From NCBI GenBank assembly GCA_963705105.1, contig CAVPIW010000019.1, forward strand, positions 15,788 through 79,787: a stretch of 64,000 bases of DNA, read 5' to 3'. Under the pieces are notes generated by a model that was not told where the DNA came from, ran no database searches, and saw only the letters and a program-made list of their open reading frames with translations. Of the stretch, positions 12,220-54,637 are shown in pieces (the stretch's first letter is position 1; each line of letters opens with the position of its first letter). Origin of the DNA: an uncultured Nitrospiraceae bacterium (lineage in GTDB: Bacteria; Nitrospirota; Thermodesulfovibrionia; Thermodesulfovibrionales; Dissulfurispiraceae). The position numbers and the translations under genes are program-made.

Positions 12220-13543
<1,324 letters not shown>

Positions 13544-13572
13544 ATGTACCATAATGTTACCTTATGGGGCGG

Positions 13573-13600
13573 AAAAATGAGGGAGGCCCGGGCCTCCCTC
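13573..13600 (-). terminator. Intrinsic terminator after the FMN-binding glutamate synthase gene
   Basis: Perfect palindrome GAGGGAGGCCCGGGCCTCCCTC followed by ATTTTT on the minus strand. Confidence 0.7.
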
Positions 13601-13623
13601 CGCAACACGCAGAAACGAATGTA

Positions 13624-15210
13624 TTAGCTGAAGAGTATCCTCTCGGCCTCTTCCATGTCGGACTCCATGACATAGGGAATACCCGTCACATCCGCAGCCT
13701 CCCTGGTGAGGGAGACGAGGTCGTTCCTCTCGAGGTACTTGAGGGCGAACTTCCTCTCGCCTGCCATCAGCTGCTGGAGACCCAGCTTCAGCCTGTCGCA
13801 GAAGGTGTACATCGCGACGGCGCCGAGGGGGATCTTGTCGAAATCCTTGCCGAACCTGTTCTTCAGGGTCTCATAGGAGATGAATATCCTCTCCGCAACG
13901 TCGCCGTGCTTCTTGATCTCGGCGGGGAGCTTCTCCTCGTCGATCCACTTCTGGATGTTCTTGCCGACGAAAGCGGGGATCATGAGGGCCCTTCCCATGC
14001 AGACGGCCTTGAAGAAAGGCGCGCCGAGCGCGAGGGCCTTGAAGAGGTGATCTTCAAGGGAGAAGCCGCCGGCAATGGCGAGATCGGGGACGTACTTCCC
14101 TTTTGCCTTGAGCTGGGAGGCATACTTGTATGCGAGTGCCTGGAGGTAGATCGTCGGGATGCCCCATTCGTTCATCATCCTCCAGGGGCTCATGCCCGTC
14201 CCGCCGCCGGCGCCGTCGATCGTGAGCATGTCCACCTGCGCATCGGAGCAATACCGCATCGCCCTGGCGAGGTCGGAGACCCTGTACGCGCCCGTTTTCA
14301 GTGAGACGAACTTGGCGCCAACCTTCCTATAATACTCGACGGCCTTCGCGAAGCCATCAGGGTCAACCATGCCGAGCCTTGAATGACGCTCGAACTCCTT
14401 GAACTCCTCCTCGCCGAATGCCTTCTGGACGATGGGATCCGTCGGGTCGGGCAGGACGATATAACCCCTGTTCTTCAATTCCTGCGCCTTCTCCATCTTC
14501 TTGACCTTCACTTCTCCGCCGATGTCCTTGGCTCCCTGGCCCCACTTGAGCTCGATGCATTCGACGCCAAGCTTCTCAACAGCGTATTCAGCAGATCCGA
14601 GCTTGGTGTCTTCCACGTTCTGCTGGAGGATGATCTCGCCGAAACCCTCATCCCAATCCTTGAAGCCCTTGATGCGCCTTTCGAGTTCGGGCGACTTCAC
14701 GACCCTGCCCTTCTTGAACTGGGCGTTCATGTCCATGCCGACGACGTTCTCGCCGATGACGACGATGATGCCCGAGATGGCGGCTCCGATGGCGAGACCG
14801 TCCCAGTTATCGCGGGCGATATCCGTCGAGCCCAGGGCGCCGGTGAACACAGGCAGGCTCATCTTGATCTTCTTGCCCTTGCCGCTATTGCCGCCGAGGG
14901 TGACCTCCGTCGAAACGGCGGGGAAGATGGCCTTGTCGGGGTCGGCCTCGATGCCGACGGCGCCGACGCACGTGCCCTGGATATTGATGTGCGAGTAATC
15001 GACGGGATACTTCTTCGTCGCTCCTGCCGTCACCTTGCCGAAAGGCATCGGGTAGATGACTTCCCTGCCCCTGTATGACGACTTCCCTATCTCGCACGGA
15101 CCCGGGCAGCCGTCGAGGCAGACCGAACAAATACCGGAATAGGGCGCGGGATCGGGAACCCTGTTCCGCGTACCCGTAGCTGAACTTGCGTTTGGCTGAC
15201 CTTGCTTCAT
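13624..15210 (-). CDS. Stand-alone FMN-binding glutamate synthase family protein (GltB2-like)
   Basis: IELKWGQGAKDIGGEV, IDGAGGGTGMSP, FKALALGAP; N-terminal CxxCxxxCxxxC. Confidence 0.85.
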   Translation of the reverse strand: MKQGQPNASSATGTRNRVPDPAPYSGICSVCLDGCPGPCEIGKSSYRGREVIYPMPFGKVTAGATKKYPVDYSHINIQGTCVGAVGIEADPDKAIFPAVSTEVTLGGNSGKGKKIKMSLPVFTGALGSTDIARDNWDGLAIGAAISGIIVVIGENVVGMDMNAQFKKGRVVKSPELERRIKGFKDWDEGFGEIILQQNVEDTKLGSAEYAVEKLGVECIELKWGQGAKDIGGEVKVKKMEKAQELKNRGYIVLPDPTDPIVQKAFGEEEFKEFERHSRLGMVDPDGFAKAVEYYRKVGAKFVSLKTGAYRVSDLARAMRYCSDAQVDMLTIDGAGGGTGMSPWRMMNEWGIPTIYLQALAYKYASQLKAKGKYVPDLAIAGGFSLEDHLFKALALGAPFFKAVCMGRALMIPAFVGKNIQKWIDEEKLPAEIKKHGDVAERIFISYETLKNRFGKDFDKIPLGAVAMYTFCDRLKLGLQQLMAGERKFALKYLERNDLVSLTREAADVTGIPYVMESDMEEAERILFS

Positions 15211-15276
15211 GGAAGACCTCCGTTTAATGATTAGTTATTTTTCGGGCCATAATTTTCAGTATTTATAACCCTAGGA

Positions 15277-15290
15277 GGCAAAAAAATACC
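15277..15290. promoter_or_regulatory. Candidate NrpR operator GGCA-N6-TACC
   Basis: GGCA AAAAAA TACC; same half-sites and spacing as 16779-16792; resembles the NrpR consensus GGAA-N6-TTCC. Confidence 0.55.
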
Positions 15291-15337
15291 GATGATATCT
15301 CCTCGCCCCCGCTTATTTTCCGTCTAATACTCCCGTT

Positions 15338-16627
15338 TCACACCAGTCCTGCCGTTCTTTCCCACATGACAAGAATTTCCGTCTCCTCCTCCCCATCGTT
15401 CTTCCAGCGCGCCGGAAAGGTGTCCCTCACAAAGAGCCCGTCTCCCTGGCTGAGATATTCCGTTTTGGCCTCCAGTGTCACCTCCGCGGCGCCCTTTACG
15501 ACATAGAGGAACTGCGGCGACGTGTGATAGAGGAAGTGCCTGCCCAGGTCCGCCCCGGGTGGAATGACGGCGAGGCTGACGGAGAGGGTACCGGAGTTGA
15601 GAATCGGGAAGACCCTGACCCCGTCTTCAAGCGCAGGGGGCTTCGACAAGACTTTGTCCCTTGGGAAAAGCCACGGCGCCGTCTCTTCCCTGCTTCCCTC
15701 CAGGAAATCCCCCGGCTTGACGGCCACGGCGGCGCACAGCTGGAGGAATGAGCTCAGGGACGGGCTGATCTGATTGTTTTCGAGCTGAGAGATGAAACTC
15801 GGTGTCAGCCCGACCTTGACGGCGAGCTCCTTCTGGCTCATGCCCCGCCTCGTCCTCATCTCCCTGAGCCTGCCGCCGATATCGGTGGCGGGCTCCCGCT
15901 TCTGGGACGTGATGGTCGCCATATCTTGCGTGATCTCGTACAGGTGGGGCTTGAAGGCCTCGCGGTCCTGTCGTCCCGAGAGTTTCAACGCCTTGATGAA
16001 GAGCTTTTCCTTTCTCTTGTAGAGATCGATGACGACCTGCGTGATGTGCCGCAGATTGGCCTTGAAATTCTGGCTATGAGCGTCCTTGTCCAAAATCCAG
16101 TAGGCGACGGTATCGAGATCGAAAAGCCTCGGGCACATGTACGTGAAAAACTTGTATGTGCTGTTCTCGTCACCCCAGAGGTCCTGCATCCCCGTGAGGC
16201 TGTCGAGGACATACCGTGTGCCTGCGGGGACATCGTCCTCGATGGATGTGAGGATGCGGGTGAACTCTTCGATGTTCTTCGGGTCGTTGACGCGGATCGT
16301 CCTGACGTTTCTCTCCCTTTCGTAATACTTCAGGAACGTCGGATCGTTCTTTCCCTTGCCCGACGTGAAGCAGTCGATGAGGATGAAGTATTCCGGTGTC
16401 AGGTACGGCGCGATCTCGTTGATGATGCTCTGAGGCGACCTGTTGAAGCTGACGTAGATGACTTTCTGGGATTCGCTGTTGGACTGGCGGACGAAATTCT
16501 TGACGAATATGTCGTAGGCCGTCCCCGAGTCCACCTCCCATACGACATTATCGCCGATATGGAGTGAGTCGATAAGACTGTCGAGCGATGGTATTCCTGA
16601 TGAAATATTAGCCACGGTAAACGGCAA
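15338..16627 (-). CDS. Regulator: KaiC/RAD55-like (degenerate ATPase) domain + XRE HTH + cupin
   Basis: ISSGIPSLDSLI...YVLDSL N-terminal RecA-like fold; IGGRLREMR...SQKELA...SFISQLENNQISPS HTH; C-terminal cupin. Confidence 0.8.
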   Translation of the reverse strand: MPFTVANISSGIPSLDSLIDSLHIGDNVVWEVDSGTAYDIFVKNFVRQSNSESQKVIYVSFNRSPQSIINEIAPYLTPEYFILIDCFTSGKGKNDPTFLKYYERERNVRTIRVNDPKNIEEFTRILTSIEDDVPAGTRYVLDSLTGMQDLWGDENSTYKFFTYMCPRLFDLDTVAYWILDKDAHSQNFKANLRHITQVVIDLYKRKEKLFIKALKLSGRQDREAFKPHLYEITQDMATITSQKREPATDIGGRLREMRTRRGMSQKELAVKVGLTPSFISQLENNQISPSLSSFLQLCAAVAVKPGDFLEGSREETAPWLFPRDKVLSKPPALEDGVRVFPILNSGTLSVSLAVIPPGADLGRHFLYHTSPQFLYVVKGAAEVTLEAKTEYLSQGDGLFVRDTFPARWKNDGEEETEILVMWERTAGLV

Positions 16628-16726: not shown

Positions 16727-16756
16727 TTGACAAAGTTGTCGCCTTGCCTTTACTAT
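16727..16756 (+). promoter_or_regulatory. Sigma70-type promoter of the mvhD-metVF-glt operon
   Basis: TTGACA-N18-TACTAT. Confidence 0.6.
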
Positions 16757-16778
16757 GGAGTAGGAATTATTGTCACTC

Positions 16779-16792
16779 GGCAATCGGTTACC
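16779..16792. promoter_or_regulatory. Candidate NrpR operator GGCA-N6-TACC
   Basis: cGGCA ATCGGT TACCg, just downstream of the -10 box, a typical repressor position. Confidence 0.55.
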
Positions 16793-16881
16793 GTCGGCGT
16801 CTATCCCTCCGTCTGGGCATAGACGCTCTTTTATGTGGAGACGGGTACAGTGAAACTAACAAAAGGATAAAAGAGACCCTC

Positions 16882-17319
16882 ATGGACCAACGAAGCGCCG
16901 GACTCAACCTCTCCATCTTTTTTTGCCAGCAACTGGACCCGGATCAGGATGTCAACAGGCGGGCCCTTGAAAAAGAACTCGGCAAACGCATCAGGTTCTT
17001 CCCCCTGCCCTGCAGCGGCCGGATCGATCCCCTCCACCTCATGCGTGCCCTCGAATCGGGGGCGGACAAGGTCTATCTCGTCACCTGTCCCGAAGGGGCT
17101 TGCCAATACCGCGAGGGAAACATCAGGGCGCGGAAACGTGTCGCCCATACGCAGACATTGATCGAAGAGATAGGGCTTGAGAGGGACCGCATCGAGCTGA
17201 TCCTGTCACCGCCGGGCCCCGTCGCTACGGTTGATGAACTGGCGAGGGGACTCCTGGCCCGGGAGGCGACGGTCGGGGCATCTCCGGTGAGGGACAGGGA
17301 GACAGTAGGTAATAGATAG
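16882..17319 (+). CDS. mvhD: MvhD/FlpD-like [2Fe-2S] subunit
   Basis: IFFC...LPCSGRID...GADKV...CPEGACQYREGN...EEIGLERDRI. Confidence 0.85.
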   Translation: MDQRSAGLNLSIFFCQQLDPDQDVNRRALEKELGKRIRFFPLPCSGRIDPLHLMRALESGADKVYLVTCPEGACQYREGNIRARKRVAHTQTLIEEIGLERDRIELILSPPGPVATVDELARGLLAREATVGASPVRDRETVGNR

Positions 17320-17372
17320 TAGTCAATAGTCAGCAAGGAAAATTTCGTACTGGATATAAAAGGAGTGTGGGC

Positions 17373-18041
17373 ATGATTACAGCAGAAAGAAAACCTTTGG
17401 AGGAAATCAGGGAGATGCTGGCGCCGTACAATAAGATCCTGGTGGCCGGTTGCGGCTCCTGCGTGGCCGAGTGCGCCTCAGGCGGAGAGAAGGAGGTGGG
17501 ACTCCTCGCCTCGGCGCTCCGCATGGATGCAAAGATGTCCGGCAAAGACCCGGTCATTGACGAAATAACGCTGGACCGCCAGTGCGTCTATGAATTCATC
17601 GACGAACTGACAGGTCTTGTCGACCGTTACGACGTCGTCCTGTCCCTCGGGTGCGGCGCCGGTGTGCAGGCCGTGGCGGAGGTCTTCCCGAAAGTCCCCA
17701 TCGTTCCCGCCCTCAACACGACTTTTATAGGGCAAACGAAGGAAGCGGGCCTGTGGATCGAAAACTGCAGGGGCTGCGGCGACTGCAAGCTCGGCTTTTT
17801 CGCAGCCGTCTGCCCCGTCACCCGCTGCGCAAAGGGACTCTTCAACGGCCCCTGCGGAGGGTCCCAATCCGGTCTCTGCGAGGTCGACCCGGACGTGCCC
17901 TGCGCGTGGCAGCTGATCGTGACGAGACTGGAAGACACGGGCCGCCTTGGCCTCCTCAGGGCGGTTCATCCGCCTGCTGACTGGTCGAAGCAGCAGGGGA
18001 AGGGACCGAGGAAAATCTACAGGGAGGATCAGAGAGCGTGA
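17373..18041 (+). CDS. metV: Methylenetetrahydrofolate reductase Fe-S small subunit
   Basis: GCGSCVAECASGGEKEV; CRGCGDC...CPVTRCAKGLFNGPCGGS...CAWQLI. Confidence 0.9.
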   Translation: MITAERKPLEEIREMLAPYNKILVAGCGSCVAECASGGEKEVGLLASALRMDAKMSGKDPVIDEITLDRQCVYEFIDELTGLVDRYDVVLSLGCGAGVQAVAEVFPKVPIVPALNTTFIGQTKEAGLWIENCRGCGDCKLGFFAAVCPVTRCAKGLFNGPCGGSQSGLCEVDPDVPCAWQLIVTRLEDTGRLGLLRAVHPPADWSKQQGKGPRKIYREDQRA

Positions 18042-18961
18042 AGACAGGAAGCCGGCTCAAGGAAGTGCTGCAGAAGGGAGAGTTTGCCGTTACCGCCGAA
18101 TGCGGTCCGCCCAAGGGGGCCGACCCGGAGGTGGTGAAGAACAAGGGAAAAATCCTCAGGGAATACACCGACAGCGTGAACGTCACGGACAACCAGACAG
18201 GCGTGGTCCGTCTCTCCAGCCTTGCCGCCTGTGCCTTGCTGAGGCAGGAGGGGATCGACCCGGTGCTCCAGATGGTCACCCGTGACCGCAACCGCATCGC
18301 GCTCCAGTCGGACATCCTGGGCGCCTCCGCCCTCGGCATACGCAATATCCTCTGTCTCTCCGGCGATCACCAGTGCTTCGGCAACCAGCCCCAGGCAAAG
18401 GGCGTCTTCGACATCGACTCCATCCAGTTGATCCAGGCAGTCCGGCACATGAGAGACGCCGGTGAGATCATCGGGGGAGAGAAACTGACGGAGCCGCCAG
18501 ACCTCTTCATCGGGGCGGCGGCAAATCCCTTTGCCGACCCGTTCAAATACCGCGCCGCCCGCCTTGCCGTCAAGGCCGACGCAGGCGCGGAGTTCATCCA
18601 GACACAGTGCATCTACAACCTCGGCCGCTTCAGGGAATGGATGGACCTCGTGAAGGACTACGGCGTCCTCGACAGGGTCTTCATCCTCGGCGGGGTGACT
18701 CCCCTCAAGTCGGCAAAAATGGCCGAATACATGAGCCGGAATGTCGCAGGCATGGATATCCCCGACGACGTTATCGCCAGGATGAAGTCCGTGCCTCCGA
18801 AGGAACAGCGCCGTGAAGGCATCAGGATCGCCGTGGAGACGATACAGGCCCTCCGTGAGATGGACGGCGTCCGAGGCGTTCATATCATGGCAATCGAATG
18901 GGAAGAGATCGTCCCGCAGATCGTGGAAGAGTCGAAGCTCTTCCCGAGACCGCAGGTCTGA
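18038..18961 (+). CDS. metF: Methylenetetrahydrofolate reductase
   Basis: VTAECGPPKG, NVTDNQ, RDRNRIALQSD, CLSGDH, FIQTQ, GVHIM. Confidence 0.95.
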   Translation: MKTGSRLKEVLQKGEFAVTAECGPPKGADPEVVKNKGKILREYTDSVNVTDNQTGVVRLSSLAACALLRQEGIDPVLQMVTRDRNRIALQSDILGASALGIRNILCLSGDHQCFGNQPQAKGVFDIDSIQLIQAVRHMRDAGEIIGGEKLTEPPDLFIGAAANPFADPFKYRAARLAVKADAGAEFIQTQCIYNLGRFREWMDLVKDYGVLDRVFILGGVTPLKSAKMAEYMSRNVAGMDIPDDVIARMKSVPPKEQRREGIRIAVETIQALREMDGVRGVHIMAIEWEEIVPQIVEESKLFPRPQV

Positions 18962-18974
18962 GAGGAGGACCGGT

Positions 18975-20354
18975 ATGCCCCCGAAATATCATATCAAGAG
19001 CGAAAAAACGCCGAACCACTTTCAGGCGATCACCCGGTCCGGCGTCATCGCCTGGGAGGAGGGGTGCCTGAAGTGCGCCCGGTGCGTGAAAAAGGATTGC
19101 GTCTACCAGGTCTACCACAAGCGGGGCATCGATGCCCGGCAGATGATCGAGTCCCTTGACAGCGTCTGCATGGACTGTTTCCGCTGTGTCCAGGGCTGTC
19201 CGAACAGGCTCATCCAGAAGGGACTCAATCCATCCTACAAGGTCCTCGGGGACCATTACTGGACGCCGGAGATCATCAGCAATCTCTGGTACCAGGCGGA
19301 ATCGGGCCGCATACCCGTCTCAGGCGCCGGCTACGGTGGCCCTTTTTCGGGAGCGGGCTTCGACGCCATGTGGACGGACATGTCCGAAATCGTCCGCCCC
19401 ACACGGGACGGCATCCATGGCCGTGAATACATCAGCACCACCGTCGACGTGGGAAGGAAGCCATCCTTCCTCGAGTTCGACAGCAACGGCGCCCTGGCGC
19501 ACACTCCGCCGCCCCTCGTCGAGCTGCCCCTGCCTATCCTCTTTGACGTCCTGCCCTGGTCGCCGCCGCGGAGGGGGATCCATCCCGCCTTCCTCGAAGG
19601 AGCGAGGTCGACAGGGACCATGACCGTCATCCGCCAGGGGGAATTCGGTCCTTCCATGGATGAGTACCTTCCCTACATCGTTCTGTATGCCGACGAGGAT
19701 GTCTCCGCCGTCCACCCGTCCGTCATCGCCCGGCTGCGCATGGTGGAGATACCGGACGGGGACAGTGTCATGACGGCGCAGCGAACGCTGAAGGAGATGA
19801 ACCCCGGCCTGGTGGTCCTTGTGAGGATATCCCTCGATCCCTCATCGGCCGAGAGGGTCTGCAGGCTTGTCGGAGAGGGCGCTGAAGCCGTCCATCTCGT
19901 TGCCGACGAGTTCGGCAATGAGATGGCGGAGAAACCTCTCTTTATCAAGGAAAGGATGCGCAAGATCCACCTCCGCCTCGTCGAGGAGGGGGTGCGGGAC
20001 CGGGTCACCCTCATTGCCGGAGGCGGCATCGCCATGGCGGAGCACGTGGCGAAGCTCATCATCTGCGGGGCGGACCTCGTGTCCGTGGACATCCCGCTCC
20101 TCGTCGCGATGGAATGCCGCGTCTGCAGGCGCTGCAGGGAGGGCATCGACTGTCCCGTGGAACTGGAAAGCGTCGACCCCCGGTGGGGCTCGGCCCGCAT
20201 CCGGAACCTCATGGCCGGCTGGCACAGCCAACTCCTCGAGATCCTCGGGGCGATGGGCATCCGTGAAGTGCGCAGGATTAGGGGAGAAATGGGCCGCGCC
20301 ATGTTCTTCGAGGACCTCGAGAGGGACATGTTCGCCACTTTGGGTCGAAGGTGA
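18975..20354 (+). CDS. Ferredoxin + degenerate glutamate synthase FMN-domain protein
   Basis: CLKCARC and CMDCFRCVQGCP clusters; WTDMSEIVRPTRDGIHGRE; IAGGGI, GADLV, CRVCRRC...CP. Lacks the GGMSFG, GEGG and QGAKPG motifs. Confidence 0.8.
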   Translation: MPPKYHIKSEKTPNHFQAITRSGVIAWEEGCLKCARCVKKDCVYQVYHKRGIDARQMIESLDSVCMDCFRCVQGCPNRLIQKGLNPSYKVLGDHYWTPEIISNLWYQAESGRIPVSGAGYGGPFSGAGFDAMWTDMSEIVRPTRDGIHGREYISTTVDVGRKPSFLEFDSNGALAHTPPPLVELPLPILFDVLPWSPPRRGIHPAFLEGARSTGTMTVIRQGEFGPSMDEYLPYIVLYADEDVSAVHPSVIARLRMVEIPDGDSVMTAQRTLKEMNPGLVVLVRISLDPSSAERVCRLVGEGAEAVHLVADEFGNEMAEKPLFIKERMRKIHLRLVEEGVRDRVTLIAGGGIAMAEHVAKLIICGADLVSVDIPLLVAMECRVCRRCREGIDCPVELESVDPRWGSARIRNLMAGWHSQLLEILGAMGIREVRRIRGEMGRAMFFEDLERDMFATLGRR

Positions 20355-20366
20355 CCGGGGATATGC

Positions 20367-20452
20367 AAGGCTTTGAGGCGCTTCGCACCGCCTGTGTATG
20401 CAACGACAGGACGAATTTTTCTTTGCGCTCTTTGCGACTTTGCGTGAGACAA
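20367..20452 (+). repeat. Family B right-end fragment followed by family C repeat
   Basis: AAGGCTTTGAGGCGCTTCGC.CCGCC matches 45275-45300; TTTGCGCTCTTTGCGACTTTGCGTGAGACAA matches 52148-52179. Confidence 0.75.
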
Positions 20453-20466
20453 GATGAGGTGATACA

Positions 20467-21987
20467 GTGACGACACTATATGAGACATTGGATTTGCCGG
20501 CGGTGAGGCCGGCGCCGAGCCGTTTCCGCAACGCCCTCGGCAGATACCGCATCTCCGTGAGCAAGGCCTGCACGAACTGCGGGCTCTGCGTGGAGCTCTG
20601 CCCGTACGGCGTGTACCAGGCGGGCGCGAAAAGACCGAAAGTCGCCGCGGAGCACTTCTGCATCGGCTTTCCCTGCAGCGAAAAGGACTTCCACTGCGTG
20701 CGGAGATGTCCCGAAGGGGCCATCGACCTCCGCCTCAACCCGTCCTTCGAGATCCTCGGGGACAGGCGGTGGCCGGCGGACCTGCTCGCCGCCACCTGGC
20801 ATATGGCCGAGACGGGAGAGATCCCGCACCAGGGACTGAATTACAAAACGGGGGATTCCGGCGGCGGCTTCGACAAGCTCCGGTTCATCTTTCCCCGGGA
20901 GCAGGGGCCCGACATCACCGAAGAGGACATATCGACAGCCATCGAGCTGAACCGCTCGGGAGACTCGAGGCCCGGCATTTCGATCCCCGTTCCCTTCTAT
21001 CTCGGCGGCATGTCCTTCGGCTCCGTCAGCATCGTCACCATGCTCTCCCGCGTCAGGGCGGCGGCGGCCCTCAAGACCTTCTGCTGCACCGGCGAGGGCG
21101 GGTACCCCGAGGAGCTCATCCCCTATGATGACTATATCATCACGCAGGTGGCGACGGGGCTCTTCGGCGTCAGGGAAGAGACGATCAAGCGCGTCCGGAT
21201 CGTGGAGTTTAAATATGCCCAGGGGGCGAAACCGGGCCTCGGCGGACATCTCCTCGGCGACAAGGTGACGCCCCGTGTGGCCCGTATGCGCGAGGCCGTC
21301 GCGGGCAACGCCCTCTTCTCTCCCTTCCCGTTCCACAGCGTTTATTCCGTGGAAGACCACAAGAAGCACGTGGACTGGATCAAGGAGACGAACCCCCGCA
21401 CCCTCGTGTCGGTGAAGGTCTCGACGCCGACGGACGTAGACATGGTGGCCGTGGGGAGTTACTTCGCCGGCGCGCACATCGTCCAGCTCGACGGGAGCTA
21501 CGGGGGCACGGGCGCGGCGCCTGACATCGCCAAGAAGAACATCGCCATGCCCGTTGAGTACGCCATCCCGAAGGTGCACAAGTTCCTCAGCGAAGAGGGC
21601 ATCCGGGACAAGATAACCATAATCGCCAGCGGCGGGATACGGTCCGCCTATGACATGGCGAAGGCCATCGCCCTGGGCGCCGACGGCGTCTGCCTCGGCA
21701 CGGCCGATCTCGTCGCCCTCGAATGCATCCGCTGCCACCACTGCGAATCGGGCAGGGGCTGCGCGCGGGGCATCGCCACGACGGACGAGGAACTGACGCA
21801 CCTCATGGACCTCGAATGGGCAACGCAGCGGATCATCAATATGTACATGAGCTGGCGGCGCCAGCTCGTCGGCATCCTCAGGCGGCTGGGCATGAGGAGC
21901 GTCACCGAGCTCGTGGGCCGCTTCGACGTGATCGGGCACCTCGATTACATCAGTCAGGACGACATCGAGGGGGAACTGGAACTATGA
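20467..21987 (+). CDS. Glutamate synthase FMN/Fe-S subunit (GltB2) with N-terminal ferredoxin
   Basis: GGMSFGS, TGEGG, QVATGLFGV, EFKYAQGAKPGLGGHL, DGSYGGTGAAP, CIRCHHC. Confidence 0.9.
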   Translation: MTTLYETLDLPAVRPAPSRFRNALGRYRISVSKACTNCGLCVELCPYGVYQAGAKRPKVAAEHFCIGFPCSEKDFHCVRRCPEGAIDLRLNPSFEILGDRRWPADLLAATWHMAETGEIPHQGLNYKTGDSGGGFDKLRFIFPREQGPDITEEDISTAIELNRSGDSRPGISIPVPFYLGGMSFGSVSIVTMLSRVRAAAALKTFCCTGEGGYPEELIPYDDYIITQVATGLFGVREETIKRVRIVEFKYAQGAKPGLGGHLLGDKVTPRVARMREAVAGNALFSPFPFHSVYSVEDHKKHVDWIKETNPRTLVSVKVSTPTDVDMVAVGSYFAGAHIVQLDGSYGGTGAAPDIAKKNIAMPVEYAIPKVHKFLSEEGIRDKITIIASGGIRSAYDMAKAIALGADGVCLGTADLVALECIRCHHCESGRGCARGIATTDEELTHLMDLEWATQRIINMYMSWRRQLVGILRRLGMRSVTELVGRFDVIGHLDYISQDDIEGELEL

Positions 21988-22006
21988 CAAACAGCGGGGG
22001 TTCACG

Positions 22007-24658
22007 ATGAAAGGGCAAAGCAGAGCAGACGCGATTATCGCTTCGCGGCATCATTTCCGCGAGGCCGAGAGACTGGTGCACAGATCCGGCATGGAGGTCG
22101 AGGAAGGCGGATGCGGGGTCACGGGGTTCGCGTGCAGCATCCCCGTGAGCGGCCGCCACATCTTCGAGCCCTCCGTGCAGATGCACAACAGGGGAAACGG
22201 CAAGGGAGGCGGTCTTGCGGCCGTCGGGCTCAGGCCTGAGCAGCTCGGGGTAGACAGGGAGACCCTCGACAATGATTTCCTCCTGCAGGTGGCGCTCATC
22301 GATGAGACAGTCCTGCCCGAGATGGAGTCCCGCTTCATCCGCCCTCACTTCCGCGTTGCCCACGAGGCCTTCGTCGAGACCGTCGACGACTACCGCGACA
22401 TCCCCGGACTCGAGGTGAAACCGCCGGCAGTGAAACGCTATTTCGTGCGGGCCACGCCGGAGGCCCTGGACCGGTTCGCAAAGGATCGCGGACTCGAAAG
22501 CCTGCCCGCAGAGAGGCTGGAAGAGGAGTTCATCTACCAGAACAGCTATCAGCTGAACCTCGCCCTCTACAGCTCCCTCGGCGACAAGAGGGCCTTCGTC
22601 CTGTCCCACGGCAGGAACATGATGATCCTGAAGATCGTCGGCTATGCCGAGATGGTCGCCCAGTATTACAAACTCGAGCACTTCGACGCCCACATCTGGA
22701 TCGCCCACCAGCGCTATCCCACCAAGGGCCGCGTGTGGCACCCGGGCGGAGCGCACCCCTTCATCGGCCTCGACGAGGCCCTTGTGCACAACGGCGATTT
22801 TGCGAACTACTATTCCGTCTCGGAATACCTGAAGCAGCGCAACATCTATCCGCTGTTTCTCACAGATACGGAAGTCTCCGTCCAGGTCTTCGACCTCCTG
22901 AACAGGGTCTGCGGGTATCCCCTGGAATACATTATCGAGGCACTCGCGCCGACGGGCGAGATGGATTTCGATCACCTGCCGGTGGAAAAGCAGCGCATCT
23001 ACCGGCAGATCCAGGCGACGCACATCCACGGCTCACCGGACGGTCCCTGGTTCTTCATCATCGCGCGGAACCACCGCCGCAGAAAACAGTTCCAGCTCAT
23101 CGGCATCACCGATACGGCGATGCTCCGGCCCCAGGTCTTCGCCATCCAGAAAGGAGAAGTGGAGATCGGGCTGATCTGTTCCGAGAAACAGGCTATCGAC
23201 GCGACACTGGAGAGCCTCGCAAAGGAAGACCCCCGGTTCGGGACCGTGGCCGACCATTACTGGAATGCCCGGGGGGGCAGCTATACCGACGGCGGCGCCT
23301 TCATCTTCTCTATCGGTGGGTCGGAGCCCGGAAAGATGTCCCTCACCTGCACGGACAAGTTCGGACGGCCCGTCGATGTCCCCACGGACCAGCCCCCTCT
23401 CGACGTCCGTGCGAAACTTCCTGTCGCGGCGACACCCTATGTGGACCACATGGCGGACATCATGCGCGGTCTCTCCGGCAATACGGTCGAGGAGCTCTTC
23501 AACGGCCTCAGGCGTGATATGGAGGAATGGGACTATGCACAGCTCCGTGCCTTCCTCAACCACCTCGTCGGCCTTGCGGACAAGGACAACCTGAAAGGTC
23601 CTGTGATCAGGCTCCTCACGCTTCTCCTGGACCGCCGCTACCCCACCGGCAACAAGAGACGCCGCTCCGTGCTCCAGATGGTCAGCGGCACCCTTGATCC
23701 AATATTCAGGGCAATACCCCTGATCAACGATACGGGGACTGTCTCCTCGTTCCGGAGGATCGGCTTTGAAAGCCGCCATATCCTGAGCGGCCCGAGGGAA
23801 GGAGAACAGGTCCTTGTCGCCGATGCAGGACCTTTCCCGCCCGAAGGGGATGAATCGTTCGCACGCCTGATATCGAACGCCTACGACCTCGGCTGGAAGC
23901 GCTTCATCTGTTTCGGCCATCGCGGTCAGCGCTTCCTCGGCTGCGGTTTCGGACCGGACACGAGGGGAGTGCGCATCGACGCCTATGGCTCCAGCGGCGA
24001 CTACCTCGCCTCCGGCGTCGACGGCATGGAGATCCACGTGCACGGCAATGCCCAGGACCAGCTCGGCCAGATCATGAAGGCAGGGAAACTCGTGGTGCAC
24101 GGCGATGTGGGCCAGACCTTCATGTACGGCGCCAAGGGCGGTGAGGTCTTCGTGCTGGGGAACGCGGCGGGCCGCCCTCTCATCAACGCCGTGGGGAAAC
24201 CGCGCGTCGTCATCAACGGCACGGCCCTGGACTACCTGGCCGAATCGTTCATGGCAGGAGATCCTCACAACGGCGGAGGCTTCGTCATCCTCAACGGGAT
24301 AACCTTCGACAGGGACGGCCGCGTCACGCCCCTTGAAATACCCTATCCCGGGTCGAACCTCTTCTCGCTCGCCTCGGGAGGCGCCATATTCGTCCGCGAT
24401 CCCCGTCACAGCATCGTGCCCGAACAGCTCAACGGCGGGCAGATCCTGCGCTTCACCAGGAAAGACTGGGCTTTGATACTGCCTTATCTGAAGGAGAATG
24501 AGCGACTCTTCGGCATCTCCGTCGATGCGCTGCTGACCGTCGACGGAGTGAAACGCAAACCGGAGGATGTCTACCGCACCATCGCCGCCGTCAAGCTCTC
24601 GGTCCTCTCGGCGAGCACGGCCCTTGCCATGAACGAGGAGTGGGTGGAGGCGGAATAG
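22007..24658 (+). CDS. Glutamate synthase amidotransferase (GltB1) fused to GXGXG beta-helix (GltB3) domain
   Basis: EEGGCGV Ntn cysteine, HQRYPT, HNGDF; C-terminal GSSGDYLASG, HGNAQD and HGDVGQTFMYGAKGG repeats. Confidence 0.9.
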   Translation: MKGQSRADAIIASRHHFREAERLVHRSGMEVEEGGCGVTGFACSIPVSGRHIFEPSVQMHNRGNGKGGGLAAVGLRPEQLGVDRETLDNDFLLQVALIDETVLPEMESRFIRPHFRVAHEAFVETVDDYRDIPGLEVKPPAVKRYFVRATPEALDRFAKDRGLESLPAERLEEEFIYQNSYQLNLALYSSLGDKRAFVLSHGRNMMILKIVGYAEMVAQYYKLEHFDAHIWIAHQRYPTKGRVWHPGGAHPFIGLDEALVHNGDFANYYSVSEYLKQRNIYPLFLTDTEVSVQVFDLLNRVCGYPLEYIIEALAPTGEMDFDHLPVEKQRIYRQIQATHIHGSPDGPWFFIIARNHRRRKQFQLIGITDTAMLRPQVFAIQKGEVEIGLICSEKQAIDATLESLAKEDPRFGTVADHYWNARGGSYTDGGAFIFSIGGSEPGKMSLTCTDKFGRPVDVPTDQPPLDVRAKLPVAATPYVDHMADIMRGLSGNTVEELFNGLRRDMEEWDYAQLRAFLNHLVGLADKDNLKGPVIRLLTLLLDRRYPTGNKRRRSVLQMVSGTLDPIFRAIPLINDTGTVSSFRRIGFESRHILSGPREGEQVLVADAGPFPPEGDESFARLISNAYDLGWKRFICFGHRGQRFLGCGFGPDTRGVRIDAYGSSGDYLASGVDGMEIHVHGNAQDQLGQIMKAGKLVVHGDVGQTFMYGAKGGEVFVLGNAAGRPLINAVGKPRVVINGTALDYLAESFMAGDPHNGGGFVILNGITFDRDGRVTPLEIPYPGSNLFSLASGGAIFVRDPRHSIVPEQLNGGQILRFTRKDWALILPYLKENERLFGISVDALLTVDGVKRKPEDVYRTIAAVKLSVLSASTALAMNEEWVEAE

Positions 24659-24691
24659 CGAGGAACGATTTCCTTTTTCAGGAACAAACGG

Positions 24692-24725
24692 ACGGGGTCG
24701 GTGATTGCACCGGCCCCGTTTTTTT
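24692..24725 (+). terminator. Intrinsic terminator ending the mvhD-metVF-glt operon
   Basis: ACGGGGTCGGTG-ATTG-CACCGGCCCCGT followed by a T run. Confidence 0.85.
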
Positions 24726-24887
24726 CATCGTCGTGTACCACAAAAAAAATCCGGCAGACACGGGGCATAGAAGGATTAAAGGTTCCCTGTTATACCACCT
24801 TGGATCTCCTGAGGGCAGTATAAGCCTGATCGGCCGATTTCCGAGGGGCCGCTTTTCTCTTGTATCCCGATCTAGTATGATAAGAGT

Positions 24888-25445
24888 ATGAATATCGAAA
24901 AACTCATTGCCATAGAGGACCCTGTGAAGCGGAAGGCGATGTTCATGGCCATTTTTTCGAAAGAAGTGGCCGGCCGAGGGGGCGCCCCTCCCATAATCGT
25001 GGGCGGTGAGGCCGTAGAGCTTTACACCCAGGGAAGTTACACCACTGGGGACATAGACATTAAATCCCCTCCGGACGTGACAGAAGCCATTCTGAAGGAA
25101 TGGGGATTCCTCCGGGCCGGCAGGACTTGGCTCAACAAAGAGTTGGACATATACATAGACTGGCTTGGAAGTTCACTGGATGAGGGTGAGGAGGCCGAAA
25201 AGAGGGTCACTACCATAAAAATAGCGGAAGGACTCGAAGTCAAGGTTGTTTCCATGGAAGACCTCATTATCGACAGACTCAGCGCCTTCAGACGGTGGGG
25301 AGACACGGATAGTCTGATGTGGGCAAAGGTTCTTATCAATGTAAAGACGTCCATCGATAGCCTCGATGACAACTATCTCAGAGAGAGGGCAAAGAAAGCA
25401 GACCTCTTGAATCTGCTCGAAGAAATCCTTGCATCGGGTGGCTGA
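24888..25445 (+). CDS. Nucleotidyltransferase-like protein (DUF6036-like)
   Basis: IIVGGEAVELYT...TGDIDI (GG...DxD NTase motif); EDLIIDRL. Confidence 0.7.
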   Translation: MNIEKLIAIEDPVKRKAMFMAIFSKEVAGRGGAPPIIVGGEAVELYTQGSYTTGDIDIKSPPDVTEAILKEWGFLRAGRTWLNKELDIYIDWLGSSLDEGEEAEKRVTTIKIAEGLEVKVVSMEDLIIDRLSAFRRWGDTDSLMWAKVLINVKTSIDSLDDNYLRERAKKADLLNLLEEILASGG

Positions 25446-25448
25446 TAT

Positions 25449-25694
25449 ATGGAAATAGCCTATGACAGATTGAAGAATATTGCATCAGAAGTCAGGGCGG
25501 AACTTGTGTTGAAAGGAACTATCGATGTCTCCGGGGGGAAGATACGAAAGAAACCGAGAAGCAAGGAAAAGACGGAATTGCTTTATACCATTGCCATGGA
25601 AAGAATGGTGAAATATCGACCGCGCAAGGAAGATGACAAGATCATCCTCCCTTATTTTCTGCCGGGCGAAGAAGAGATGCCGACTCAATTGTAA
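25449..25694 (+). CDS. Small basic hypothetical protein, possible partner of the NTase
   Basis: 81 aa; starts 3 bp after the upstream stop. Confidence 0.55.
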   Translation: MEIAYDRLKNIASEVRAELVLKGTIDVSGGKIRKKPRSKEKTELLYTIAMERMVKYRPRKEDDKIILPYFLPGEEEMPTQL

Positions 25695-26191: not shown

Positions 26192-26698
26192 ATGACAGCT
26201 GCGGCTGAAAAAGAATTGAATCTGGAACAGAAGGCCCTCACGATCCTCGGGATGAGATTTCCGGCGGTTCGCGCGGTGTTCAGGGGCGACCTTGCGCAGA
26301 GCGCCCCCAAAAGCTGGGAGGACATAACCGGTGAGCACCTTGATCTGATGATCAGACGTGGACTCTCTGTGGATGCGCTTGAAAATCTCCGCACCAGCCT
26401 CGGTGTCCCACACGCGACTCTGGAAGAACTGCTCGGAACCAGCAGGAGAACGCTCCAGAGGGCAAGGAAAGAGCACAGACGGCTGTCCCCGGTGGAAAGC
26501 GACCGCGCATACCGCCTTGCCAACGTCTTTGCACTCGCCAGCGCGGTATTCGAAAACGAAGAGGCGGCCAGGGCATGGCTGAAAACTCCGCAAATCGGGC
26601 TGGGCGGCAAAGTGCCCTATGACCTCATCCATACGGAGGTCGGCACGAAGGAGGTCATCGAGCTGCTGAAAAGGATCGAATACGGCGTCCTTGCGTGA
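26192..26698 (+). CDS. Xre/MbcA/ParS-family antitoxin
   Basis: LSPVESDRAYRLA...AWLKTP...LGGKVP...L.RIEYGV. Confidence 0.9.
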   Translation: MTAAAEKELNLEQKALTILGMRFPAVRAVFRGDLAQSAPKSWEDITGEHLDLMIRRGLSVDALENLRTSLGVPHATLEELLGTSRRTLQRARKEHRRLSPVESDRAYRLANVFALASAVFENEEAARAWLKTPQIGLGGKVPYDLIHTEVGTKEVIELLKRIEYGVLA

Positions 26699-27150
26699 TA
26701 CCCGCCTGGCGACTGGTCAAGGAGAAATACGCCCCGGAGGCCCTCAGCGGCTTTGGCGGCCAGATGGTGTCGGGCAGGTGGCATCACGCCGGGGTGCCCA
26801 TCGTGTACGCAGCGGACAGCCTCGCCCTTGCAGCCCTTGAAATATTCGTGCACCTGCCTCCCGGTGCTCACGGCATGAAGTTCGTTGCCGTCAAGATCGA
26901 AATACCCGAAGATCTTGAAATCCATGCCCCAAAGGTCCCGCATAACTGGAGGGACACCCCCTCTACTGATTCAACGAGGACACTCGGAACGACCTGGTTC
27001 CACGGAGCGCATACAGCCGTCATGAAAGTCCCCTCGGTTATTGTCCCTGTGGAGAACAATTACATCCTTAATCCTTCTCACCCGGACTTCAGGAAGTTGA
27101 TAATTCATCCCCCCTTGCAGTTCAGCTTCGATCCCAGGATGTGGAAGTAG
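26695..27150 (+). CDS. RES-family toxin (NAD+ phosphorylase/MbcT-like)
   Basis: WRL...SGFGG...GRW...Y...LAALE...VPSVIVP.E.NYILNP.HPDF...FDPR. Confidence 0.9.
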   Translation: MIPAWRLVKEKYAPEALSGFGGQMVSGRWHHAGVPIVYAADSLALAALEIFVHLPPGAHGMKFVAVKIEIPEDLEIHAPKVPHNWRDTPSTDSTRTLGTTWFHGAHTAVMKVPSVIVPVENNYILNPSHPDFRKLIIHPPLQFSFDPRMWK

Positions 27151-38617: not shown

Positions 38618-40436
38618 CTACATTTCAACCCGCGTGATGATGCCGTGCAGTTTCTGCGGAGGGAGTTCGTAGAACTTCACGAAAGCGGGAGTGTTTCTCT
38701 TTATGAATGCAAAAATGCGCCATATGATGCTGTCCGTCACAATGTCTTCAAGACCATAGAAGATGGCGACTTCATCGATGCCCGCCTCCTTGAGGATCTC
38801 CTCAACGTCGATCACCTCCATGTATCCCATCTGTATCTCGAAAGTCCTCAAACCCGGTGCGACGGTCTCTTTGAAAAATCCGATCACGCCGAAGGGGTCG
38901 TCCCGCCTCACCAGGGAGACGAAGATGTTGTCCTCATAGACGATCCTCTGGGTCAGCATGGTTCTGACGATGTAGGGAGATACCAGGCTGATGTCACGGG
39001 CGAAGAAAAGAGCCGTCCCCTTGAGTCTGCTCATACTCGTGTAGACATACGTATACCGCCTGAGGAACTCGCTCTGGTTCATCTGTTTCATCGATCTGTA
39101 GAGCTGCTTCTGACCTTTTGTATACAGGAAGATGATCCCGAGGGGAATAGATGCAATGACAATGGACCAGTAGCCGCCGTGAGGGATCTTGTAAATGTTT
39201 GAGAGAAGATAAACGACATCGACGACCGTCACAAGAAAGGATACGAGGGCCAGGGCCTTCTTGCCTTTCAGGTGAAAGATCCAGGTCATGAAGAGCCCCG
39301 TCAGGGTCATCGTTCCGGTGACGGCAAGGCCGTATGCAGCAGCAAGGCGGCTCGACTCACCGAACTCGACCATGACGAAGAGGACGGCAAGGAGGAGGAA
39401 CCAGTTGACGGAACCTATGTAGATCTGAGATCTCATCTCCGTGGACGTGTAATCGACCTTGAAGAGGGGCATCACATGGGTCGTGATCCCCTGATAGACG
39501 ATCGAGAACATCCCGCTGATCATGGCCTGCGATGCAATGACGGTGGCCATGATGCTCAGAATGAGGAAGGGGACGTAGAGTGCCTGCGCATGGTAGAAAA
39601 CCATCCCGAAGAGCACGTTCTTGGACTCCGGGTGCCCGATGAGAAAGGCCCCCTGCCCCAGATAGTTCAAAAGCAATGCAAAAAAGACGAAATACCAGGC
39701 CCTGAGGATCGGCATCCTGCCTAGGTGACCCATGTCGGCATAGAGGGCTTCACCGCCAGTGGCGCAAAGTATGACTTCCGACAGGACGAAGAACCCTGCA
39801 ATACCGTTCTCGTATAGAAACTCCAGGGCATAGTGGGGGCTGATGGCCCTGATCACAGTTGGAAATTCCAGGATGGACAGGACCCCTGAAAGGGCGAGCG
39901 ACCCGAACCACAGGACCATCAGGGGGCCGAAGGCGGCCGATACCTTCTCTGTCCCTTTTTTCTGGAACGAAAACAGGACGATGGCGATCATGCCCGCGAG
40001 CACGACGAGGAGTTCCTTGCTCGTATGCTCCAGTCCCGGGATGAGAAGCATCCCCTCGACGGCGCTCAGGATGCTGATGGCAGGCGTGATGACACCGTCT
40101 CCGATGAGCAGGGAAATGCCGGCATAGGAGAGCACAGTGACAAAGGCCGCTTTTTTGCCCGATTTTAGCAGGGGCACGAGGATTTCTCTGAGGACGATCG
40201 TTCCGCCCTCGCCTTTCCTGCTGAGGCTCATGGCGAGCCAGGCGTATGCAACGGTGACAAGGATGATCAGTGTCCACGTGATCAGTGAAAGGACGCCGAT
40301 GACGTTTGCCTCCGTCGGCTTCGTAAGCAGGATGATGACGGTGAGAGTATAGATGGGGCTTGTCCCGATGTCGCCGAAGACAAGGCCGAGAGACTTGATG
40401 ATGCCTTTTGCTACCGACTCTTTATGGTTAAGCACT
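38618..40436 (-). CDS. kup: KUP/HAK/KT potassium transporter
   Basis: GLVFGDIGTSPIY, DGVITPAISILSAVEG, TGGEALYADMGH. GTG start chosen downstream of the REP-like element; exact start uncertain. Confidence 0.95.
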
Positions 40437-40498
40437 CTTTTTCCCAGAACTTTTGTCAGCAGAGCTACTAAGAATGTCAGGAGTAAAACCCCGCAATT

Positions 40499-40583
40499 TG
40501 TCATTCCCGCAACCCCGCACTCGAGGCGGGGGCGTCGGGAATCCTTCTGAAAAGAGAAAGATTCCGGACAAGCCGGAATGACA
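40499..40583 (+). repeat. Palindromic REP-like repeat, family A, copy 2
   Basis: Near-identical to 1064-1150. Confidence 0.85.
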
Positions 40584-40670
40584 GAATCTTATACCGACCG
40601 TGGCTCCACCAATAGACCCATTAGTAAATACCCTTTCTTACAGCTTAACAACGGGGGCTGTAAATTTTGG

Positions 40671-40710
40671 ATCAATAAAGGGGCTTCAGGTATAAAGATC
40701 CTGTAAAAAA
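40671..40710 (-). promoter_or_regulatory. Candidate KdpE box and promoter of kup
   Basis: Minus strand TTTTTTACAGGATCTTTATAC...AAGCCCC..TTGA; 18/21 match to 49498-49518; resembles the T-rich KdpE site. Confidence 0.55.
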
Positions 40711-40735
40711 GAGGGAGGCGAAGGAGGGCTGACGA

Positions 40736-41452
40736 TCAGGGTGACGGCTCATCGTCGTATTTGAGTCTGTAACCAACACCCGGTTCGTTGAGAAGAAAGC
40801 GCGGCCGCGCCGGGTCATCCTCGATCTTGCGCCTGAGCTGGGCCATGTAGACGCGCAGATACTGCGTCTGCCCCGCATAGGGCGGCCCCCACACGTCCCT
40901 CAGGATCTGGCTGTGAGTGACCACCTTGCCGGCATTCCGGATCAGGAGGGCCAACAGCCTGTATTCTATGGGTGTCAGGTGAATCTCCTTCCCGCCGACG
41001 AAAACCTGTCTCTTCGTCAGATCGACCCGTATAGTACCGAGTTCGAATACCGGCTGCTTTTCCTGTGCGTACTGCATTATCTTGTGACGCAGGGACACAC
41101 GGATGCGGGCGAGGAGTTCCCCGGCGCCGAAAGGCTTTGTGAGGTAATCATCGGCGCCGGCATCGAGGGCACGCACCTTGTCCTGTTCCTGCTCCCGCGC
41201 CGAAAGCACGATGATCGGCATCGAGCTCCATTCACGCAACTGCCCGATCACGTCCAGGCCCTCCATATCAGGGAGGCCGAGATCGAGCAACACGACGTCG
41301 GGATTGCGCGTCGTCGCCTGCATCAGCCCTTCCTGCCCCGTTGCCGCCTCAATAAGGCGATAGCCGTGGCTCTGGAGCGTTATCCTCAGGAAACGGCGCA
41401 TCTGGGACTCGTCCTCTATAAGAAGGATCAGTTCTGCATCCCGCTCTGTCAT
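40736..41452 (-). CDS. kdpE: Response regulator KdpE
   Basis: LLIEDE, LLDLGLPD, ALDAGADDYLTKPF, YLRVYMAQLRRKIE..P.RP...EPGVGY. Confidence 0.95.
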   Translation of the reverse strand: MTERDAELILLIEDESQMRRFLRITLQSHGYRLIEAATGQEGLMQATTRNPDVVLLDLGLPDMEGLDVIGQLREWSSMPIIVLSAREQEQDKVRALDAGADDYLTKPFGAGELLARIRVSLRHKIMQYAQEKQPVFELGTIRVDLTKRQVFVGGKEIHLTPIEYRLLALLIRNAGKVVTHSQILRDVWGPPYAGQTQYLRVYMAQLRRKIEDDPARPRFLLNEPGVGYRLKYDDEPSP

Positions 41453-41480
41453 ACTGTTATCCTCCTGCACGGAGAAAAGA

Positions 41481-44180: not shown

Positions 44181-44251
44181 CTTATGCTCCTTGTCCGGGA
44201 TATAGAATTCTCGTGCAGTCGTAGGTGAAGCCTCTGTCAGTATGTAATGCC

Positions 44252-44323
44252 GTCATTCCGGCTTGTCCGGAATCGTTCTTCAGTTCAGAAGGATTCCCGA
44301 CGCGCTCCGCTTGCGGGAATGAC
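44252..44323 (-). repeat. Palindromic REP-like repeat, family A, copy 3
   Basis: GTCATTCCGGCTTGTCCGGAATC...GGATTCCCGACGC...GCGGGAATGAC. Confidence 0.85.
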
Positions 44324-44384
44324 AGCCCGTGTGACTCCACGTATGACCTCCATAACCCCTTCATCCTTCTAAAGTTTATCAGAC

Positions 44385-44957: not shown

Positions 44958-44965
44958 AAACCCTA

Positions 44966-45319
44966 CCTTTGCATGCACCCCGGAAAGGCGGGGTGTATGC
45001 GCCGAAAACCTTGGTGCGGCGACACCTGTATTGAGACGGAAGACGAGGCATAAGCCGATGTCAGGAGAATGGGACATATTCTCCGACACTGACCCTGACA
45101 CTCATACCTTATCGTTGCAATACACTCCCGGGAAAGACGGGGCGTATGCGCCGAAAACCTTGCTGCGGCGACACCTTAACCTTCACTGAAGGCAACCTTT
45201 CAAGCCAATGGTCGATTACACAGAGAGTGGAATCCTGAAAGACAAACCTGACGAGGCTCATCGTCGCCTTCAGTAAGGCTTTGAGGCGCTTCGCCCCGCC
45301 TTTTCATGCAGGTACAAGG
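44966..45319 (+). repeat. Two tandem family B MITE-like copies between kdpB and kdpC
   Basis: The core GGAAAG.CGGGG.GTATGCGCCGAAAACCTTG.TGCGGCGACACC occurs at about 44982 and 45131. Confidence 0.85.
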
Positions 45320-45330
45320 CAAAGTCTCTC

Positions 45331-54545: not shown

Positions 54546-54605
54546 AACGGCTTCAACTTGCAAAGGGAATCGGACGGGGCTATAATCGAATTATCCTGTT
54601 CTTAC

Positions 54606-54637
54606 TTTGCGCGCTTTGCGGCTTTGCGTGAGACAGA
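54606..54637 (+). repeat. Family C short repeat
   Basis: TTTGCGCGCTTTGCGGCTTTGCGTGAGACAG. Confidence 0.7.

Follow-up and report, generated by a model that had tools for sequence, protein, structure and literature searches.

Does a folate reductase module feed a split glutamate synthase? A conserved mvhD-metVF-gltB operon in an uncultured Nitrospiraceae bacterium

Introduction

Where does a glutamate synthase obtain its electrons when its genes lie beside those of a folate reductase and no gltD stands among them? The question is raised by a six-gene operon in a 64,000-nucleotide stretch of DNA from an uncultured Nitrospiraceae bacterium (assembly GCA_963705105.1, contig CAVPIW010000019.1, positions 15,788 to 79,787; hereafter the window). 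Here, genes for the adaptor MvhD and for a methylene-tetrahydrofolate reductase (MTHFR; tetrahydrofolate, THF) of the MetVF type precede three genes of a split glutamate synthase, called B2a, B2b, and B13. Glutamate synthase is the main enzyme of ammonia assimilation, and its known forms draw their electrons from NAD(P)H, ferredoxin or, as has been proposed, F420. The best explanation of our results, to which we assign a probability of roughly 0.55, is a glutamate synthase fed by methyl-THF via MetF, MetV, and MvhD. The genes are as follows.

16882..17319, + strand: mvhD (PF02662), [2Fe-2S] adaptor of a glutamate-synthase-linked subfamily
17367 (GTG start) or 17376 (ATG start) to 18041, + strand: metV (PF12225), Fe-S/Zn subunit of methylene-THF reductase
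18038..18961, + strand: metF (PF02219), flavin subunit of methylene-THF reductase
18975..20354, + strand: B2a, ferredoxin domain and degenerate GltB2 barrel with motif loss and 12 invariant Cys
20467..21987, + strand: B2b, ferredoxin domain and catalytic GltB2 (PF01645, E 7.7e-90)
22007..24658, + strand: B13, GltB1/GltB3 fusion with GATase_6 and GXGXG domains

In the proposed enzyme, the six products would form one glutamate synthase in which MetF-MetV-MvhD stands in for GltD. Judging from their conserved residues, B13 would free ammonia from glutamine, and B2b would bind 2-oxoglutarate and flavin mononucleotide (FMN) and reduce the imine. B2a would be a duplicated B2b without catalytic activity; it would contain Fe-S clusters and be the docking site of the donor module, with MvhD as the adaptor on B2a and MetVF docked on MvhD. 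MetF would oxidize methyl-THF to methylene-THF, and the electrons would pass through MetV and MvhD to the clusters of B2a/B2b and on to FMN, so that methyl-THF, glutamine, and 2-oxoglutarate would yield methylene-THF and two glutamates. We hold with considerable confidence that this is a glutamate synthase with a dedicated MvhD-MetVF partner; granted such a partner, the methyl-THF-oxidizing direction is favored, with somewhat less assurance.

Results

Organization and conservation of the operon

All six open reading frames (ORFs) lie on the + strand, separated in gene order by 47, -4, 13 (metF-B2a), 112 (B2a-B2b), and 19 nt (B2b-B13). These coordinates agree with an earlier note on this DNA (the sequence-only reading), which had described six co-oriented, tightly packed genes with 13 nt between metF and the next. 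Positions 20365-20455 in the B2a-B2b gap are made up of copies of a short repeat that recurs throughout the genome (400 blastn matches). The same note had reported that gltD, hdr, and Wood-Ljungdahl genes are lacking; none is evident in the ORF list of the window, as judged from N-terminal ORF sequence and from a Pfam/NCBIfam scan that covered only the ORFs near the operon, but the genome as a whole does encode gltD and hdr. Parts of the operon are covered by contigs from soil metatranscriptomes (one study), and one contig spans metF-B2a; these contigs are strandless and also cover flanking genes, and do not imply a single transcript.

A scan of GTDB genomes gave 209 B2a relatives, from which 80 loci were kept; locus counts out of 80 refer to these. 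Among the 60 loci with full flanks, 58 have all five partners of B2a, the two exceptions being one locus without metVF and one cut by a contig end, so the synteny that the sequence-only reading had wished to see checked across genomes is indeed conserved. The operon recurs in many anaerobes known only as uncultured bacteria; its loci span Nitrospirota, several Desulfobacterota lineages, and Spirochaetota, and the closest relatives are named Nitrospirota (Dissulfurispiraceae, Thermodesulfovibrionia). Within the class, the operon is patchy (B2a in 6/201 genomes searched), and a plasmid search found no close relative, the best match having 36% identity. In six loci, the order is rearranged to mvhD-B2a-B2b-B13-metV(-metF), with mvhD still before B2a. 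Nitrogen genes are found at many operon loci: glnA at 30/80, amtB at 29/80, and glnK at 31/80.

Conserved residues of the subunits

The residues expected of each enzyme part are largely retained; the functional roles that we give to conserved residues in B13, B2b, MetF, MetV, and MvhD are those that we take these families to have. C15, C44, C69, and C74 of MvhD are invariant in 63 sequences, as are all 13 Cys of MetV across 63 sequences. MetF keeps its folate-binding residues E21 (67/67), D110 (68/68), and Q188 (68/68), which presumably correspond to E28, D120, and Q183 of the E. coli enzyme. The adjacent metV and metF, with their Fe-S Cys and folate-binding Glu/Asp/Gln, thus encode a MetVF-type methylene-THF reductase. 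B13 is a class II glutamine amidotransferase, in which the nucleophile Cys36 follows a 35-residue propeptide and becomes N-terminal; C36 and R62 are invariant (each 61/61), as are the residues H234, R236, N262, G263, and D287 (each 62/62), glutamine-binding positions included. Its residues 653-809 match PF01493, the GXGXG domain of GltB3.

The two ferredoxin-GltB2 genes noted earlier are both present, each with a two-cluster ferredoxin domain, but they are not equivalent. B2b aligns with residues 879-1170 of Azospirillum brasilense GltB, including the FMN and 2-oxoglutarate motifs; S183, E210, Q227, K249, Q252, K255, R275, and K317 are present in 72/72 sequences, and its cluster Cys (C420/423/426/432) are invariant. 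B2b therefore has the FMN barrel, the 2-oxoglutarate motifs, and the cluster Cys together, a combination that B2a does not have. B2a is the sister paralog of B2b (tree support 99/98), and its predicted model has an FMN-barrel-type fold (pLDDT, predicted local distance difference test, 85). Since every FMN/2-oxoglutarate catalytic motif is lost in B2a while 12 Cys stay invariant in 75/75 sequences, it is probably a non-catalytic Fe-S electron wire. Its ferredoxin domain resembles the HdrA C-terminal domain no more closely than it does AprB or PsaC, and we dismissed this likeness as generic.

The residues of B2b also bear on the suggestion, made in the sequence-only reading, of a methylamine or N-methylglutamate route, in which an enzyme resembling N-methylglutamate synthase joins glutamate to methylamine or to a folate-borne methyl group. 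MgsABC is likewise a split GltB1/B3/B2 with a redox cofactor described as unknown (PMC6237917, in part). B2b, in contrast, has GEGG and Lys where an MgsC-type protein does not, and is 34% identical to that protein without grouping with it; the comparison used one sequence, picked by its position before a type III glutamine synthetase on P. aminophilus pAMI6. By this one-sequence comparison, B2b is not an MgsC-type FMN subunit. Nor was gmaS (type III glutamine synthetase) found in the 99% complete genome of 4.2 Mb, the single glutamine synthetase match being 28% identical to GmaS. MetF, moreover, is an oxidoreductase and not a methyltransferase. We consider this route very improbable.

An exchangeable slot upstream of B2a

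We compared the gene just upstream of B2a in 80 distant metagenome loci, 15 of which were unscored (11 with short flanks, 4 without a called ORF). This slot holds a GlcD-like flavoprotein gene in 56 loci; in 9 others it holds mvhD and/or metVF, and the two kinds never occur together. Distant relatives of B2a include B2a-B2b fusions; in others the GlcD-like flavoprotein is fused to the B2a N-terminus (the GlcD-B2a cluster has 19 members), and one protein of 3016 aa joins GlcD-like, B2a, B2b, and B13. The slot occupancy and the fusions indicate that B2a-B2b-B13 is one enzyme with an exchangeable upstream partner.

The sister family (P0138, P0144, P0151, P0270; loci L128-L203) has the GlcD-like flavin adenine dinucleotide/Fe-S protein before B2a-B2b-B13 or fused to it, and one cluster of it is named Chloroflexota. 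At the GlcD-type loci L128, L131, L135, and L138, an ORF of about 300 aa and a GltD-like gene, possibly NfnAB, follow B13.

Phylogeny of MvhD and MetF

In the MvhD tree, one branch (100/98) divides the proteins by gene context, with 27 operon-linked on one side and 23 Hdr-linked on the other. An N-terminal segment, AAD[LM]AG, is present in 22/23 proteins of the Hdr type and in 0/27 of the operon type, and may be a contact with HdrA; the MvhD of our operon is not of the Hdr type found in type IV MTHFR. Operon-linked MetF, in contrast, is not of one origin. In an 80-row tree made by a quick method, 30 operon-linked copies fall into a main clade and 5 into another, distant one, and a single clade was rejected in a careful tree of 33 rows (p-AU 0.00145); groups were set by gene context, and this test was made after the first tree had been seen. 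With metagenome rows included (31-row careful test), at least three label changes are needed to account for the strongly supported branches. The trees thus indicate that operon-linked MetF comes from at least two lineages. MvhD is thus the constant partner, and MetVF either joined the core repeatedly or was exchanged without loss of the link.

Another view is that these are separate enzymes, a split glutamate synthase that depends on ferredoxin and a MetVF of anabolic function, co-regulated on a nitrogen-controlled transcript. Biosynthetic genes are often operon-mates, metVF is missing at a few loci, and binding among the subunits is a prediction. Set against this, no stand-alone role is known for MvhD, which forms its own subfamily and keeps its place beside B2a where metVF has moved or gone missing. 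Relatives, moreover, carry fusions of the slot gene to B2a. Taken together, we regard separate enzymes as quite unlikely.

The MvhD split bears equally on a reading in which HdrABC joins in trans or from adjacent genes, HdrA oxidizes NADH, and methylene-THF and the glutamate synthase each take a share of its electrons; the glutamate synthase would then be the second acceptor of type IV MTHFR. The genes hdrC-hdrB(-hdrA) follow B13 in 8/80 loci; hdr genes also follow B13 in metagenome loci L195 and L202, where a second mvhD-metVF was not seen within the flank. HdrA is the NADH site in Moorella (PMC8760232, in part). Nevertheless, in four genomes (G013, G014, G017, and G033; loci L023, L024, L027, and L053) the operon runs into hdrC-hdrB-hdrA with its own second mvhD-metV-metF, which places two MvhD-MetVF sets within about 15 kb, and the operon MvhD has lost the Hdr-type segment. 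Bifurcation of the Hdr type would also be unneeded because both acceptors lie above NADH. We find this arrangement unlikely, though less so than separate enzymes.

Other copies in the same genome

The sequence-only reading had called for a search of the genome for a second metVF and for gltD, and both were found. Contig C5 carries a complete hdrC-hdrB-hdrA-mvhD-metV-metF, after which come cooC and folD. The MetF of this cluster shares 45% identity with the operon MetF, from which it also stands apart in the tree. The Hdr-linked mvhD, at G000:C5:133504-133872 (-), contains an in-frame TGA that probably encodes selenocysteine, and ordinary ORF calling does not detect it. The genome also encodes acetyl-CoA synthase and formyl-THF synthetase. 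A second split glutamate synthase lies about 28 kb away on the operon's own contig as GltB1-GltB2 and a GltB3/GltD fusion, and the two glutamate synthase operons are adjacent in 6 relatives.

In our operon, no GltD accompanies the catalytic genes as in NAD(P)H-dependent glutamate synthase, the nearest GltD being the one fused to the distant GltB3. Likewise, hdrCBA is absent from the window, which does not fit type IV MTHFR, and metVF is flanked by mvhD and B2a instead of by rnfC2 as in type III. As the genome has its own hdrCBA-mvhD-metVF and a split glutamate synthase of the GltD type, the operon is an extra, dedicated module. What the sequence-only reading would have taken as evidence against a link was thus not encountered at the sequence level: the linkage is conserved, a second metVF exists, and the operon MetF is apart from the Hdr-linked copy.

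Whole-genome searches used 50 of the 80 operon loci, and counts out of 51 add the present genome. At least two MTHFR matches are found in 48/50 operon genomes. GXGXG matches are limited to B13 in 31/51, number two or more in 19, and are absent in 1; most of these assemblies are incomplete, weak GltB3 fusions may be missed, and a second match is not necessarily a glutamate synthase.

Leader and regulation

Three control elements frame the operon.

16727..16756, + strand: sigma70-type promoter, 10/12 consensus, with a -35/-10 pair at the equivalent place in Nitrospirota relatives
16777..16832, + strand: leader, probable attenuator, with an imperfect palindrome/hairpin (16777-16794) and a terminator-like hairpin and T-run (16797-16832)
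24690..24728, + strand: intrinsic terminator, 14-pair stem and T-run

By itself, the promoter scan of the window was barely above chance (7 found compared to 4.1 +/- 1.9 in shuffles), and the promoter is credible despite this because it is conserved in relatives. The single promoter and single terminator claimed earlier were both located, with the 14-pair terminator called at 24690-24721; the terminator is not the only one of its kind, as the leader contains a second terminator-like hairpin.

A leader model built from five relatives, with both copies of this genome left out, found two significant sites in 4.2 Mb. One is the operon leader (E 9.1e-5); the other, with E 1.3e-6, precedes the second glutamate synthase operon, GltB1-GltB2-GltB3/GltD, at G000:C19:5765-5815 (-). 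In several Nitrospirota, too, the conserved leader stands before the operon. Rfam contains no match to it, and it may be an undescribed attenuator. Since one type of leader precedes both, the two glutamate synthase operons look co-regulated. A strict leader pattern matched 2/201 genomes only. Twin hairpins of what we take to be the ANTAR-like kind occur at several loci of other lineages, L011, L012, L014, and L051 among them, and not in this leader; a PF03861 search was blank, as were its controls.

Candidates for a protein that binds the palindrome were also considered. The divergent XRE regulator was rejected: 62/201 class genomes have it, and it could not be detected in G202, whose palindrome is perfect. 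NrpR is not supported, since its family cut-off was passed in 2/5 palindrome-bearing genomes and the palindrome site was not found before glnA, amtB, glnK, or nifH.

Neighboring genes

The divergent unit at 12220-16627 (-) comprises a KaiC-like ATPase/XRE/cupin regulator, a GltB2-like FMN protein, nrpR, and glnK. The GltB2-like protein (13624-15210) is a stand-alone protein of 528 aa without the C-terminal cluster Cys. It was rejected as a member of the module, being present in 70/201 class genomes compared to 6/201 for B2a; it and the divergent regulator occur independently of the operon. On the + strand, a DUF6036 nucleotidyltransferase with a small ORF downstream (24888-25694) and a RES/Xre type II toxin-antitoxin pair (26192-27150) are found. 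A kdp/kup potassium uptake cluster at 38618-49202 (-) and LigD/Ku-like end-joining genes at 52213-56179 (+) were assigned from N-terminal sequence only.

Discussion

Energetics and direction of the reaction

The glutamate synthase couple lies at about -37 to -66 mV. The methylene/methyl-THF couple is at -200 mV, and MetVF has no NADH site (PMC8760232, in part). At such a potential methyl-THF can drive glutamate synthesis, with an estimated -26 to -31 kJ/mol overall. It would be a weak donor, unable to reduce NAD+ unaided. With the separate Hdr-MvhD-MetVF running reductively, the folate couple could serve as a redox shuttle.

Electrons could also flow the other way, with reduced ferredoxin entering at B2a/B2b and driving both glutamate synthesis and methylene-THF reduction, MetVF being a second sink. 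This reading is consistent with the two-cluster ferredoxin domains of B2a and B2b and with type II MetVF, which takes reduced ferredoxin in vitro (PMC8760232, in part), and it needs no uphill step. On the other hand, the Hdr-linked MetVF of this genome can already make methyl-THF, the sister clade fills the MvhD-MetVF slot with a flavoprotein of a dehydrogenase family, and a pure ferredoxin enzyme would need no repeated recruitment of MetF. We consider a double sink doubtful, although it is the least improbable of the alternatives discussed here.

Several observations weigh against a methyl-THF-fed enzyme. With 2-oxoglutarate bound, the FMN of A. brasilense glutamate synthase has a potential of -270 mV, and the beta-subunit [4Fe-4S] clusters are of low potential (PMC8097209, in part), so a donor at -200 mV faces uphill hops. 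Purified MetVF has mostly been reported as reductive with ferredoxin, and oxidation of methyl-THF to NAD+ in A. woodii is slow (PMC8760232, in part). At L029, L170, and L171, mvhD-B2a-B2b-B13 is found with no metVF next to it, and a MetVF encoded in cis is therefore not a requirement. The mutual exclusivity of GlcD and MvhD is one change on the B2a tree (91/79), and the counts of 56 and 9 therefore stand for one event; the GEHG motif present in a solved relative of the GlcD-like partner is missing from that partner, whose role as a dehydrogenase or donor is thus putative. The common leader may be a relic, duplicated when the operons split, as the two operons adjoin in 6 relatives. Acetyl-CoA synthase co-occurs in 47/51 operon genomes, which is no higher than the class background of 191/201, and we rejected this co-occurrence as an operon-specific link. 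Subunit binding and enzyme activity are themselves predictions.

On balance, the sequence-only reading is borne out in part: its main idea, MvhD-MetVF as the electron input of a glutamate synthase, is supported by synteny, trees, slot replacement, and common regulation, and its N-methylglutamate route is not supported. A broader and tentative idea, which we think rather less likely to be true than not, is that B2a-B2b-B13 represents a branch of glutamate synthases for donors near -200 mV that are unable to reduce NAD+, working with the Hdr-linked MetVF in a folate-couple shuttle. The donor would be methyl-THF via MvhD-MetVF here; in the sister clade, it would be the compound on which the GlcD-like flavoprotein acts.

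Comparison with known systems

The proposed enzyme shares its amidotransferase, FMN/2-oxoglutarate barrel, GXGXG domain, and conserved catalytic residues with GltB/GltD (A. brasilense 1EA0/2VDC/6S6S) and with ferredoxin-GltS (1LLW). Compared to GltB, it is divided among three chains, one of which unites B1 and B3, and has an additional dead GltB2 paralog with 12 Cys; B2b has four Cys where the [3Fe-4S] site of GltB has three, and mvhD-metVF takes the place of GltD. The split archaeal-type GltB1/B2/B3, a kind to which the other operon of this genome (GltB1-GltB2-GltB3/GltD) belongs, resembles it in the separate ferredoxin-GltB2 and the modular electron input. The donors of these split enzymes are swappable, GltD-type ones being described and F420-dependent ones of the FrhB type mentioned (PMC9012536, in part). 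B2b is nevertheless only 29-32% identical to archaeal-type GltB2s and forms its own clade with B2a, and the donor slot is occupied by MvhD-MetVF, or by a GlcD-like flavoprotein in relatives.

From type IV HdrCBA-MvhD-MetVF of Moorella thermoacetica (PMC8760232, in part), with which the operon shares the order mvhD-metV-metF, the Cys, and the folate residues, it differs in that glutamate synthase genes replace hdrCBA and MvhD is from another subfamily. With MgsABC it has the split GltB1/GltB3/GltB2 architecture in common, but it lacks MgsC-type motifs, has ferredoxin domains, and fuses other domains. We found no description of a glutamate synthase paired with MvhD-MetVF in the literature, where supplementary gene tables or subscription papers could mention one. 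What the present genome adds is the occurrence of this module beside a type IV MTHFR as well as an NAD(P)H-type glutamate synthase, together with the MvhD split, the repeated pairing with MetF, the GlcD-like slot, and the common leader.

Implications for nitrogen assimilation

If the proposed donor is correct, a folate-bound methyl group would be a new electron entry point for glutamate synthase, and the Wood-Ljungdahl pathway's methyl branch would be tied directly to ammonia assimilation in energy-starved sulfate reducers and syntrophs. The question bears on the partners of MetVF in vivo and on electron sinks for methyl-THF oxidation without reverse electron transport. In some genomes, the operon enzyme may be the main route of nitrogen assimilation, since it is the only detectable glutamate synthase in 31/51. 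Should the broader idea of a branch for weak donors hold, nitrogen assimilation would provide a free acceptor for methyl-THF oxidation, and NADH bifurcation at HdrA would yield low-potential electrons with every glutamate made.

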